Assembly (NCBI GenBank): GCA_964354805.1
Contig: CAYHBD010000009.1
Coordinates: 96,001-160,000 of the forward strand
DNA length: 64,000 bases
Direction: 5' to 3'
Origin: an uncultured archaeon
Lineage (GTDB): Archaea; Iainarchaeota; Iainarchaeia; Iainarchaeales; GCA-2688035
A program made the position numbers and the translations under genes. This document shows positions 1-63,012 of this stretch, in pieces. Under the pieces are notes generated by a model that saw only the letters and a program-made list of their open reading frames with translations, did no database searches and was not told where the DNA came from. The stretch's first letter is position 1. Each line of letters begins with the position of its first letter.

Positions 1-92
1 ATGTTGTCATTCTTGACCCGGAAAAAAGCGAAATCGCAAAAAAGATGGGCATAAGCAAAAAAGGAAAATTCGCCCTAAGGCTGAGCAGGTAG
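1..92 (+). CDS. spt4: Spt4/RpoE'' transcription elongation factor, 3' end (partial)
   Basis: Frame from nt 3 reads VVILDPEKSEIAKKMGISKKGKFALRLSR*, the typical RpoE'' C-terminus; usual position upstream of rps24e. Confidence 0.85.
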   Translation, partial: VVILDPEKSEIAKKMGISKKGKFALRLSR

Positions 93-182
93 TTGGGGGA
101 TTTGGGAAACAATAGGAAACGAGACAGCAAAAAAATCACGCTAAGGCTGAGCAGGTAAACACAGGGCGCAAGGGGTGGGACG

Positions 183-605
183 ATGCACATTGATATCGAA
201 AAGAAAAAAGAAAACAAGGCATTGAACAGAACAGAGATTGCATTCAAAATAAGCGAGTGCAAGGTAACACCAAAGCGCTTGGATGTCAGGGCAAAAATCG
301 CTGCTTTAATGAGTGCAAAAGAACAGCTTGCGATTGTTGACAGCCTGCACCAGCAATTCGGCTCGGACATTGTAACAGGAACTGCAAAGGTTTACAATGA
401 CGAGGCAACACTGCGAAAGCTTGAGCCAAGCTATTTGATTGCAAGAAACGAGGGAAGAAAGGAAAAGAAGGAAAAAGCTGCGGGAAAACCGGAAGAAAAG
501 AAAGAGAAAACAGAGAAAAAGCCCGAGGAAAAATCTGCCGAGGCAAAAGAGAAAGCAGAAAAGCCAGGGGAGAAACCAGCAGCGAAAGAGGCTGCAAAAG
601 CGTAA
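183..605 (+). CDS. rps24e: 30S ribosomal protein eS24 with K/E/A-rich C-terminal extension
   Basis: N.xL.R.EI, TP.R..V, FG....G.AKVY motifs; synteny with spt4 and rps27ae. Confidence 0.93.
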   Translation: MHIDIEKKKENKALNRTEIAFKISECKVTPKRLDVRAKIAALMSAKEQLAIVDSLHQQFGSDIVTGTAKVYNDEATLRKLEPSYLIARNEGRKEKKEKAAGKPEEKKEKTEKKPEEKSAEAKEKAEKPGEKPAAKEAAKA

Positions 606-627
606 TTGTTTGTGGAAGTGATTATTG

Positions 628-843
628 ATGCCGAAGAAAGTGAAGGAAAGAAAGGGGAAAAGGCAGAGGAAAAAGCACCCGAAGCACCTCAAATCAACTC
701 TTTATAACGCTAAAGATTCTGGCGTTGAGAGAAAGAACCGCTTCTGCCCAAAGTGCGGCCCAGGAATTTTCATGGCCCTACACAAAGAAAGGGTCACATG
801 CGGAAAATGCGGTTACACGGAATGGAAAAAACAGGGCAGCTGA
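628..843 (+). CDS. rps27ae: 30S ribosomal protein eS31 (S27ae)
   Basis: [21 protein letters not shown] zinc ribbon. Confidence 0.95.
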
Positions 844-855
844 AAAGGTAAGCAG

Positions 856-1410
856 ATGGTTGAAAGGTTTTTGGCGAATTTTTTAATCGATTTCCTGCTG
901 ATTTTTCTTCCAATCGCATTCTTTTTCCTGCAAAAAAAAGGTGGAAAGCAAAAATTCGGCTTAAAGGATTCCCTGCAAGAACTGGGCTTCTGCAAAATTC
1001 CGCTGAAACAATTTCTGAAAAAAACAATTATGCTGACAGTCGCATTGATTGCAGTTGCCTTTGCAATCAGCTTTTTATTGAACGCCTTTCACGCAAACGA
1101 TTTAAGCAATGTCACTCCGGCTATTGAAAGCCTGCGGGCAGTACCTCTGCTTTTGGTGTACATTGTAATCGTAAGAAGCAGCGCTGAAGAGGTTTTCTTC
1201 AGGGGCCTTTTGACAAAAAAAACAGGTGCCCTTGTTTCATCAATTCTTTTTGCATTAATCCATTTATCCTACGGCAGCTACGCCGAGGTTGCAGGAGCAT
1301 TCATTCTCGGCTTCATTTTTGCGAAAGCGTTCCAATTAAATAAAAACTTGTACCCAAATATTGCAGCACACATTGCATTCAACGCAGTATCAGTGACATT
1401 AATGTATTGA
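856..1410 (+). CDS. CPBP/Abi (CAAX protease-like) intramembrane metalloprotease
   Basis: EEVFFRG, FALIH and H..FN motifs; several TM helices. Confidence 0.9.
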   Translation: MVERFLANFLIDFLLIFLPIAFFFLQKKGGKQKFGLKDSLQELGFCKIPLKQFLKKTIMLTVALIAVAFAISFLLNAFHANDLSNVTPAIESLRAVPLLLVYIVIVRSSAEEVFFRGLLTKKTGALVSSILFALIHLSYGSYAEVAGAFILGFIFAKAFQLNKNLYPNIAAHIAFNAVSVTLMY

Positions 1411-1492
1411 AACACAGGTTTTTGATACGGCAATAATAAAAAAAGGCATTGGATAAGATTGGAAGCCAATAATTGAAAAAGGTGATGAAAAG

Positions 1493-60865: not shown

Positions 60866-60942
60866 AAGAAATTGGTTACTTAAACTTAATAAAAACCGAT
60901 AAGCTTGGCAAAAATAAAAGGCATAAAATTAGTTAAAAAAAC

Positions 60943-61146
60943 TCAATAGCTTGAGTGGTTGCTGTGCGACAAATGGCTGTGCTGGTGCAGCGTGCTAGCA
61001 TTTGCATCCTTTAATTTGCTTGAAACAATGGCTGCAGAGGCGAGGATTGCACCCAGGGAGAGAAGGCTGTGCTTGCTTATTCTCCCATGCTCTTCGCTCA
61101 AGTAAGCGCCGATTGTCCTCTTTATTGCCGGAAATTTCTGTGGCAT
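60943..61146 (-). CDS. His-Xaa-Ser repeat precursor peptide (HxsA-like)
   Basis: 67 aa; leader with a hydrophobic stretch and core HQHSHLSHSNHSSY; lies between two radical SAM genes. Confidence 0.85.
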   Translation of the reverse strand: MPQKFPAIKRTIGAYLSEEHGRISKHSLLSLGAILASAAIVSSKLKDANASTLHQHSHLSHSNHSSY

Positions 61147-61215
61147 ACTGATTCATTAGGTTGGAGGTTTTATTTAATTTTAACTTTTTGGGGTTTTTAA
61201 GCAATTTTGGCAATT

Positions 61216-62652
61216 TCAGCCAATCTTTGCTTTTTTAACCCAATTCAGCAAAATATCGCGGTCTTTGCTGAACAGTTTTTCAAACAAGAAAGGGAACTGC
61301 TTTTGCTTCAGCCTGCATTCAAAGTGCTGGGAAAGCAACGGCACCAAGCTGCCCTGCTCTGCAAAAGCTGCAACAGGGCAGAACCTGCACATGCCAGTCC
61401 ACTTGCAGCTGTTGCAAGCCATGCCCAAGCCGCTGCTCAAGGAAACCAGATTCAGGGCAGCAGGCGAAGTAAAAACATCTTTGTATGATTGCCCAATGCT
61501 GCCAATCCTGAACAATGGTTCTGCTTTTGCCTCATCGCAGCTGTAAATGTCACCATTAGGCTGAAAGCTGCACTGCATCAGGGCAGCGCCGCAGGGCTTG
61601 CTGTAGCAGGTGTGGGCAATACTTTCAGGTGAGCTGATTTTCCGCAGCATTAGGGAAGCAGTCTGCTCTGAAAAATGCCTGCCACTCCTGTTTAAAGAAG
61701 CAGCCTGCCCGGAAATATGCTGCCCCTTTTTATTCAGGGAAATGCAGTACTCAACCATCTGGCTCCAGAAGCGAAAGAATTGTTCTGCATCATATCCGAT
61801 TTTGCTCCAGTTCTGCTTTGCCCTGCCAATTGGCCTCAGGGAAACTGCAGTAACGTCTTGCATTCCCTGCCGCAGATATTCATCCACTATTTCTTTAGCA
61901 AAAGGCAGGCTGTGCTTTGTTGTAGTGCACAAAGCGCCAACGCGCTTGAAGCCAAAATCGCTTCTCAGGGCATTAATCCAGTAAGAAACTTTTTCATAGC
62001 TGCTGCCATTACCAAGCGGCCTGTTTTTGTCGTGCAGGTGCTTTGGCCCATCCAGGGAAGTGCAGATGTCAGAAACATTGTTTTTTTTGAAAAAGCCGGC
62101 AATTGTTGCATCCATCAGGGAAAGGTTTGAAACAATTCTCCAATGCACCTGCTTTTTTGGGGTTTTCTTTTTTGCGTAAGCAACCATTTCTTGAATTGCC
62201 GGAAAGTTTGCAAGAGGCTCTCCCCCCTGGAACTCTATTGTAAAGCAATTGCTTGGGGTCTGCCAGATGAAGTCAATTGTTTTGCGCGCTGTTGCAGCAT
62301 CCATGTCAATGCCTCTGCCCTTTGCAGAAAGGGGCAGGCTGTTGCTGTAGCAGTAAAGGCAGCCGAGGTTGCACCTGCCAGTTGGATTGACAATGTGCAG
62401 CGAAACAGGGCTGAACAAGTGGCTGTAATGCGCCCTGTAATCTTTCACAAGCTGCTTTTTGCCCCTGGGAGAAAAAACAAGGCCCTTGCTTTCCAGTTTT
62501 TTCAATAAAGCGCCATCAATTTTATTTTTTTGAATCGCATCCAATTCCCGCGCTGTTACAGGCAGCCAGCTGCCCAAATCGTTTATCATTAATGCCTTGC
62601 CATCTTTCAGTTTGTGAATGAAAAAGCGATTTAAACACAAATTCTTGAACAA
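61216..62652 (-). CDS. hxsB: His-Xaa-Ser system radical SAM maturase HxsB-like
   Basis: SLHI...T.RCN..C.YC, IEFQGGEPL, SLDGP..LHD.NR, PCGA...Q, GDIY.CDE; TTG at 62652 after GGTGA (GTG 62661 is an alternative). Confidence 0.85.
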   Translation of the reverse strand: MFKNLCLNRFFIHKLKDGKALMINDLGSWLPVTARELDAIQKNKIDGALLKKLESKGLVFSPRGKKQLVKDYRAHYSHLFSPVSLHIVNPTGRCNLGCLYCYSNSLPLSAKGRGIDMDAATARKTIDFIWQTPSNCFTIEFQGGEPLANFPAIQEMVAYAKKKTPKKQVHWRIVSNLSLMDATIAGFFKKNNVSDICTSLDGPKHLHDKNRPLGNGSSYEKVSYWINALRSDFGFKRVGALCTTTKHSLPFAKEIVDEYLRQGMQDVTAVSLRPIGRAKQNWSKIGYDAEQFFRFWSQMVEYCISLNKKGQHISGQAASLNRSGRHFSEQTASLMLRKISSPESIAHTCYSKPCGAALMQCSFQPNGDIYSCDEAKAEPLFRIGSIGQSYKDVFTSPAALNLVSLSSGLGMACNSCKWTGMCRFCPVAAFAEQGSLVPLLSQHFECRLKQKQFPFLFEKLFSKDRDILLNWVKKAKIG

Positions 62653-62760
62653 TGGAATCACCCTTGCCCCGAAAGCAAAAAGCGCTCAAAACACAAATTT
62701 TTGGACAACAGAATCGCCCCCGTGCAAAAAACAAAAAAACACAAATTCTTGGACATGGTG
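62633..62760 (-). repeat. Three copies of the hxsB start region
   Basis: AAACACAAATT(C/T)TTG(A/G)ACA at 62633, 62689 and 62737. Confidence 0.85.
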
Positions 62761-62763
62761 TTT

Positions 62764-63012
62764 TCACTCGCTGCCCTGCCTCAGCGCCAGGCAGTAGTTG
62801 CAGAAATTCAGCGCAAGCAATCGCAGCTGTGTTTGGCGCAGCGGCTTCAGTTCAATCACCACCCTCTGACCTTCGGGCAGCAGCTTTGCTTTGCAAATGC
62901 CCTGGAATGCTTTGGCTGTTTCCTGCACTAATTGCAGGGGGTAAAAAAAGGCATTCAAATCAATCAAGGCGATTTTTTTCTTTTTGTCAATCTTAATTTG
63001 GTAGATTTGCAT
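62764..63012 (-). CDS. HxsD-like small protein
   Basis: N..FY....V......F and C-terminal F.NY.LAL. Confidence 0.7.
   Translation of the reverse strand: MQIYQIKIDKKKKIALIDLNAFFYPLQLVQETAKAFQGICKAKLLPEGQRVVIELKPLRQTQLRLLALNFCNYCLALRQGSE

Follow-up and report, generated by a model that had tools for sequence, protein, structure and literature searches.

The genome of an uncultured archaeon of the order Iainarchaeales (Iainarchaeota) carries short, diverged copies of the starts and ends of its own genes, here termed echoes, which lie some tens of nucleotides from the originals. We describe them in a stretch of 64,000 nucleotides (the window; positions 96001-160000 of contig CAYHBD010000009.1, our C9, in GenBank assembly GCA_964354805.1) and across the whole 1.38-Mb genome, a 49-contig metagenome-assembled genome (MAG) from a mixed community, whose relatives are labelled Candidatus Iainarchaeum, a DPANN archaeon. 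Echoes are real short tandem duplications and not assembly artefacts. The best reading of the data, and a moderately probable one, is that they originate by tandem duplication of the slippage or microhomology type, pass through a selection filter, and have their units exchanged between lineages. No prior description of such echoes in DPANN genomes was found in the literature searched.

The window contains 15 exact repeats (non-low-complexity, at least 12 nucleotides [nt], spacing of 40 to 100 nt), whereas 30 order-3 Markov simulations gave 0.67 on average and never more than 3. The genome-wide histogram of spacings displays a hump at 40 to 70 nt, with a peak at 45 to 60 nt, over an otherwise flat background. 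Together, the excess of exact repeats and the hump rule out chance. Diverged pairs were collected genome-wide as ungapped matched segments and classified on gene calls based on codon usage. At offsets of 30 to 84 nt, gene boundaries accounted for 84 pairs, spacers for 42, and the interior of single genes for 83, while the control offsets of 150 to 400 nt yielded 3, 1, and 82, respectively; boundary and spacer pairs together thus number 126 versus 4. The clustering at gene termini asserted in a preliminary description of this DNA was borne out, with 54 3'-end and 19 5'-end pairs among the classifiable boundary pairs. That description had also proposed a genome-wide search for repeats of short spacing and a comparison with orthologues; the former returned the hump and the 126-versus-4 excess, and the latter found orthologous echoes in relatives, supporting their reality. 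Echoes on the stops and starts of housekeeping genes occur about once per 10 kb, at more than 100 loci, each with its own distinct sequence. The density ratio of the spacing hump is 3.9 in this genome, 2.9 in a close relative, 2.6 and 2.1 in two other genomes (G011 and G004), and approximately 1 to 1.6 in five other family- or order-level genomes. Tandem Repeats Finder run at a low threshold gave mostly noise and was set aside.

A chimera of co-occurring strains, which the preliminary description named among the findings that would overturn it, or a duplication introduced during gap closing might be suspected in a 49-contig MAG from a mixed community, the more so as related strains co-occur and several near-identical alleles are found in public assemblies. 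However, at 29560-33631, 29390-30438, and 11515-12890 (6.5 kb with six echoes) the window is matched at 100% identity by Logan contigs of two runs, and these independent assemblies reproduce the six echoes exactly. Orthologous echoes are also present in JGI, ENA (MEGAHIT), and Logan assemblies of other samples (four other assemblies). An artefact, moreover, would neither avoid reading frames nor respect multiples of three. Because independent contigs match exactly and relatives from other metagenomes carry orthologous echoes, we regard an assembly origin as extremely improbable.

Every pair of the preliminary description that was examined lies at the position given there or no more than a few bases from it. 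The echoes and related repeats of the window are as follows (ORF, open reading frame; HTH, helix-turn-helix; handles such as L061 denote sequences of relatives).

75-157, plus strand: spt4 3' end (stop at 90-92) with its echo at 141-157; period 66, with a 17-nt exact repeat at 75 and 141; the two copies read KFALRLSR and KITLRLSR.
1429-1547, plus strand: sua5 start, an upstream copy (1429-1481) of the now-coding 1495-1547; period 66, 15 nt repeated at 1467 and 1533.
8722-8799, plus strand: 3' end of a Lon-like gene and its echo; period 58 (8729/8787).
12302-12411, minus strand: tail of an HTH regulator, working unit U1 at 12355-12411 and echo U2 at 12302-12358; period 53, the pair 12309/12362 (distance 53) matching over 50 nt at 88% identity.
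13433-13545, plus strand: grpE 3' end and start module of a small conserved ORF; periods 54 to 56; conserved in L059.
24665-24761, plus strand: valS 3' end (KGELAVELEF, stop) and its echo (KGELAVEMQF, stop); period 50 (24665/24715); single copy in L061.
27996-28090, plus strand: bud32 start module, duplicated; period 69 (27996/28065).
28818-28895, plus strand: repeat of the rps15 ribosome-binding site and start region; period about 56 (28826/28882).
29725-29790, plus strand: 5' echo of rps3ae; period 46 (29725/29771); in the window and L061, absent in L058.
30339-30470, plus strand: duplicated rps3ae-DUF92 junction unit; periods 81 and 64.
35189-35340, minus strand: array at the secD 5' end, three to four units of 41 to 42 nt; one unit in L061.
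36560-36640, plus strand: nog1 ribosome-binding site and start module, duplicated; period 41, 14 nt repeated at 36582 and 36623; second copy absent in L061.
43255-43425, plus strand: in-frame 60-nt repeat of a gene for a Cys-rich protein; of the same size class, coding, and not an echo.
47856-47995, plus strand: three start modules of DP2 at 47856, 47922, and 47975, beginning MPIKLD, MPIKLD, and, at the true start, MPIKIDID.
51788-51899, minus strand: cdc6 3' end (51846-51899) and its echo (51788-51841); period 58; both read KKLRAVLEKELMGE followed by a stop.
53034-53186, minus strand: in-frame 42-nt repeat in the cdc6 N terminus; copy number differs from L028.
59690-59755, minus strand: echo of the start region of a small gene (59502-59744); period 54.
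62633-62760, plus strand: start module on the hxsB side, three copies at 62633, 62689, and 62736; periods 56 and 48.

At the rps3ae-DUF92 junction the order is rps3ae end, echo of the DUF92 start, echo of the rps3ae end, and true DUF92 start (rps3ae end pair, 30339/30420; the DUF92 pair, 30391/30455, is the weakest, with approximately 12 of 13 nt matching). Duplication of one junction unit explains both the 3' echo of rps3ae and the 5' echo of DUF92. The rps3ae gene itself has lost its ancestral stop here (relatives end in SRLIE and a stop) and reads nine codons into the repeat unit at 30352-30379, giving a protein of 202 rather than 194 amino acids. The upstream bud32 copy opens a 22-codon ORF whose TAA directly precedes the bud32 ATG. 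L061 shares the bud32 echo, its copy differing by a 1-nt deletion and by three changes at third positions.

Banded gapped self-alignment was used to resolve unit anatomy. The aligned span covers a median of 0.97 of the period, and half of the pairs reach 1 or more, meaning that they comprise more than two units. Since the similar stretch fills the whole period, echoes are head-to-tail tandem units and not dispersed copies. Arrays often hold 2 to 4 copies, noncoding promoter-side arrays included, and the identities of full-period pairs peak at 70 to 80%. The periods are divisible by three in 92% of in-gene pairs versus 30% of boundary pairs, repeats cover 4.5% of spacer bases versus 0.9% of coding bases, and in-gene repeats are mostly confined to the first 20% or last 30% of proteins. 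Echo-bearing spacers are 40 to 80 nt longer than echo-free ones. These locations show indirectly that echoes persist through a selection filter, and they support the earlier view that echoes are tolerated only in spacers, across a stop or start codon, or in frame. The stop codon is kept in about 34 of 36 echoes, a biased count that we do not use as evidence because the segments end on matches.

The substitution pattern distinguishes the two copies of a pair. Genome-wide, mismatches between working copy and echo number 85, 77, and 131 at codon positions 1, 2, and 3 (29.0:26.3:44.7%). Expected spectra were derived arithmetically from the observed mismatch counts and the coding rates between window and L061; coding divergence between the window and an approximately 88% identical relative (L059 and L061, 19.5 kb aligned) is 6.5, 4.4, and 17.6% at the three positions. 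A model of one coding copy and one free copy evolving at the third-position rate predicts 87/79/127 (29.6:27.1:43.3; chi2 of ~0.24), while two coding copies predict 67/45/181 (22.8:15.4:61.8; chi2 of ~41) and two neutral copies 98/98/98 (chi2 of ~17). The average echo thus behaves as a free copy beside a constrained one. Differing codons between gene and echo comprise 95 synonymous and 149 nonsynonymous cases, so the synonymous bias claimed in the preliminary description is present, and extreme in a subset of pairs, but moderate overall. Its argument that neutral decay could not yield synonymous differences overlooked that the working copy changes only at synonymous sites. All-synonymous pairs number 5, against 1.0 expected, and the most striking are those of cdc6 and the HTH tail. 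The mismatches include C/T, G/T, and G/A in both directions. A diversity-generating retroelement pair was considered and, with no search made for a reverse transcriptase, rejected on two grounds: mismatches are not confined to adenines, and the more than 100 loci include ribosomal protein genes.

Close relatives display a rapid turnover of units. Coding regions of the window and its relatives are 85 to 95% identical, while the spacers differ by whole units; gapped positions make up 20.5% of spacer versus 0.9% of coding sequence. Unit counts differ at secD (4 versus 1), valS (2 versus 1), and the HTH tail (2 versus 3), the valS echo and the 4-unit secD array being found in the window only. An insert after rps15 is present only in L058 and L061, and the 5' echo of rps3ae is shared with the more distant L061 and lost in the closer L058. 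Within one 90% protein cluster, the rps3ae-DUF92 spacer measures 18, 71, 75, or 193 nt in four members. Spacers of close relatives thus differ in unit number because spare copies drift, are lost, or are re-amplified after duplication.

The reading of local duplication, selective filtering, and unit exchange can be put as a sequence of steps. A local duplication, by replication slippage or mediated by microhomology, would straddle a stop, a start, or an entire junction between genes. As the positions of the echoes indirectly show, of two units at a 3' end the first keeps or recreates the stop and the second is left untranslated; at a 5' end, the last unit keeps the true start and the upstream units become short leader ORFs. 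Duplications inside genes survive only in frame and near protein termini. Afterwards the working copy changes only at synonymous sites, and the spare copy drifts, gains indels, and is lost or re-amplified. Because recombining populations are polymorphic for such a duplication, a spare unit could be overwritten by the working gene end of a related lineage through homologous recombination, which would produce the subset of echoes with purely synonymous, protein-like divergence. Recombination exchanges units at the HTH tail, and we infer that it does so elsewhere. Loss of FEN1, which would create a rad27-like duplication mutator, is ruled out by an intact XPG/FEN1 gene. NucS is present and MutS absent in this genome, as is usual for archaea.

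The cdc6 pair differs by nine synonymous changes. Polarised with the orthologous pair of L028, most of these are synonymous changes in the two working copies. The L028 echo is decaying, since it carries an L-to-F and an M-to-T replacement and a 1-nt deletion that shifts the frame. Between the DP2 stop and the cdc6 echo the window has a 373-nt segment (51412-51785) with a 93-amino-acid ORF (51493-51774) without a Pfam match; L028 lacks the segment, and there DP2 and the cdc6 echo abut. In L033, whose Cdc6 is only 59% identical, the cdc6 stop region is followed through a separate four-fold tandem echo at 11227-11340 (CAGTGAAAATTAA...), which arose independently at the same end of the gene. Upstream of cdc6, the spacer at 53180-53520 is approximately 93% identical to L028, far above other spacers, which is consistent with a replication origin.

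The tail of the HTH regulator, compared in five genomes, is the locus at which exchange between lineages is clearest. Its units abut exactly: the working stop TGA is formed at the junction T|GA, and U2 keeps an end encoding EE followed by TAA. The echo ends in GIKIEE and a stop and homologues in other lineages in GI[KR]VEE and a stop, which identifies the distal echo as the original gene end. Upstream of the tail, L082 matches the window at 560 of 560 nt, yet their arrays differ, with two units in the window and three in L082 (a working end in RVEE and a stop, a decayed unit, and a protein-like KSAAREINAEFGIRVEE with a stop). L059 and L083, 13 to 15% diverged upstream, match the window exactly over the 93 nt made up of U1 and the initial 36 nt of U2, and L060 differs in this core by one synonymous change. 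The window's echo carries the KEIDEE codons of the L082 working tail, and the window's working unit uses five alternative synonymous codons; no paralogous donor for these codons was found elsewhere in the genome. Three different downstream neighbours follow the array. Judged from these sequence comparisons, the array is a recombination mosaic between lineages, and at this locus the proposal of an echo derived from an orthologous allele holds. Unit borders, inspected by eye only, show an imperfect GGA(A)T(G)AAG motif in units that are very diverged.

Several observations weigh against tandem duplication, filtering, and unit exchange as the full account. The odd codons at the HTH tail lie in the coding unit and not in the echo, which simple local duplication followed by decay cannot explain. 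The synonymous fraction is over-dispersed among pairs (P=1e-4), and shared echoes and alignable spacer diverge by 8.9 to 11.9%, compared with 17.6 to 18.2% at third codon positions, which reflects either constraint or gene flow. This lineage has 2 to 4 times more echoes than most relatives, for which the reading offers no explanation. In addition, no full-period pair in the genome exceeds 95% identity. Young, near-perfect pairs could be hidden by the time to fixation or by assembly collapse of perfect repeats; repeats occur at 4 of 98 contig ends versus 1.75% in controls, which lends weak support to their being hidden there. With no young pairs found and contig ends only slightly enriched, ongoing in-place duplication is not demonstrated.

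Displacement of alleles as the main generator, in which a gene end from a related strain is spliced in with an offset junction and the old end is orphaned, is rather unlikely in our judgement, although it accounts for part of the data. The preliminary description proposed this process, by way of homology-facilitated illegitimate recombination or uptake of short DNA, and it would make echoes diverged from their formation. It agrees with the L082 working-tail codons in the HTH echo, the 93-nt core shared across lineages diverged by 13 to 15%, the resemblance of the third L082 unit to the working tail of a more distant homologue, and the break of synteny at the far end of the HTH echo. The five all-synonymous pairs, the lack of near-identical young pairs, and the position of the 373-nt window insertion beside the cdc6 echo point the same way, as does a weak excess of gene-tail copies that bracket the downstream gene (31 versus 15 to 27 in permutations). 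However, the model of two coding copies is rejected by the codon-position spectrum, which allows for little divergence at birth. Promoter-side noncoding arrays of 3 to 4 units are hard to account for, in-frame repeats of the same period occur inside genes, and an illegitimate junction gives no reason for an offset of 40 to 70 nt with few longer ones, a narrow range that uptake of short DNA does not explain either. Four-way comparisons of cdc6 and valS are star-like, unlike those expected of a foreign allele, and in L082 decay has gone further in the middle unit than in the distal one, although serial displacement would give the opposite order. Nonhomologous DNA adjoins the echo at the HTH tail, with its three neighbours, and at cdc6, with the 373-nt insertion, and not at most junctions aligned with L061. 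The idea that echoes are pieces of orthologous alleles thus stands at the HTH tail and is not supported as a general mechanism, given the spectrum, the arrays, the in-frame repeats inside genes, the turnover, and the decay of the cdc6 echo in L028.

Retention of echoes for a function, as leader ORFs that couple translation, as extra promoter or ribosome-binding modules, or as 3' untranslated region or terminator elements, seems improbable. Shared echoes are more conserved than third codon positions, with 0 substitutions in 46 nt for the rps3ae 5' echo between window and L061 and 0 in 93 nt for the HTH core, and the upstream bud32 ORF, whose three substitutions all fall at third positions, either stops at the true ATG or overlaps it in each of the two lineages. 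Against such a role, unit presence, number, and length vary freely between close relatives, down to the rps3ae-DUF92 spacer of only 18 nt; the rps3ae echo has a leader peptide whose frame is shifted between lineages, and the cdc6 echo of L028 is frame-shifted as well; and the sequence differs at every echo.

The echoes resemble several known systems in part. In Rhs, contact-dependent inhibition (CDI), and type VI effector loci, whole toxin domains are displaced together with immunity genes under diversifying selection and remain as orphan tails. The HTH locus likewise stacks alternative gene ends with protein-like divergence and breakpoints at the tail; in contrast, echoes are 15 to 20 codons of housekeeping genes, need no cargo, and are mostly decaying. 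Homology-facilitated illegitimate recombination, reportedly described by de Vries and Wackernagel in 2002, is said to join foreign DNA via one homologous anchor, so that a duplicated and diverged stretch might remain at the opposite end. It would, however, predict broad offsets, single events, and no in-frame internal repeats, whereas echoes are arrayed.

Microhomology-mediated tandem duplications are documented in every domain of life, and coding regions are depleted of them (PMC13167724); they also seed tandem repeats (Dan et al. 2021, PMC8639346; Wei et al. 2026, PMC13167724). Echoes share with them the short head-to-tail copying of single-copy DNA, depletion from coding sequence by purifying selection, in-frame placement within genes, reversibility, variable copy number, and occurrence in archaea. 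They differ in being old and diverged (70 to 90% identity), in lying on housekeeping stops and starts, and in having in some cases been exchanged between lineages. The closest described genomic pattern is that of Borg elements, with pervasive tandem repeats (Schoelmerich et al. 2023, PMC9879509). In both, the sequence is particular to each repeat region, unit lengths are multiples of three only within ORFs, and turnover between relatives is rapid and independent. The repeats of Borgs are perfect, occur in more copies of mostly shorter units, and are extrachromosomal, whereas echoes form 2 to 4 diverged chromosomal copies. Perfect repeats of the Borg type were rejected as an identification, since echo identity peaks at 70 to 80% and units are not free of substitutions.

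Other features of the window and its relatives were observed. Two short ORFs are conserved in relatives, where they differ mostly at synonymous sites, one of 25 amino acids (MVKRPNPIDVPDELFPDMPNDGDDF; 13531-13608) between grpE and dnaK and one of 40 amino acids (29600-29722, no Pfam match) between rps15 and rps3ae, and both likely encode real small proteins. Four large genes at 37737-45847 (717, 483, 676, and 723 amino acids) have a common C-terminal segment of approximately 200 nt and look like a lineage-specific expansion of a surface-protein-like family; L061 has a single 447-amino-acid gene in their place (18340-19683). L061 also carries a PemK/MazE toxin-antitoxin pair (13585-14147), the window counterpart of which (33382-33582) is only about 200 nt long.

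The finding shows how spacer DNA is made and remodelled in a very compact archaeal genome. Echo-bearing spacers are one unit longer, and spacers diverge mainly by gain and loss of units and not by substitution. It also carries a warning for annotation, as start sites, short upstream ORFs, and apparent alternative C termini are often products of duplication in such genomes. At the HTH tail, diverged DPANN lineages have recombined with breakpoints inside a 50-nt repeat, which makes this locus a compact and testable example, and if the exchange of units is common, echoes would be useful as markers of gene flow in uncultured archaea. We put forward only tentatively the idea that arrays at gene ends and starts are preferred crossover points between lineages diverged by 10 to 15%, through which units of 50 to 100 nt spread horizontally and old tails are stacked as orphans. 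If true, toxin-tail displacement would have a small-scale counterpart that acts genome-wide and that builds and remodels most of the spacer DNA in the lineage.

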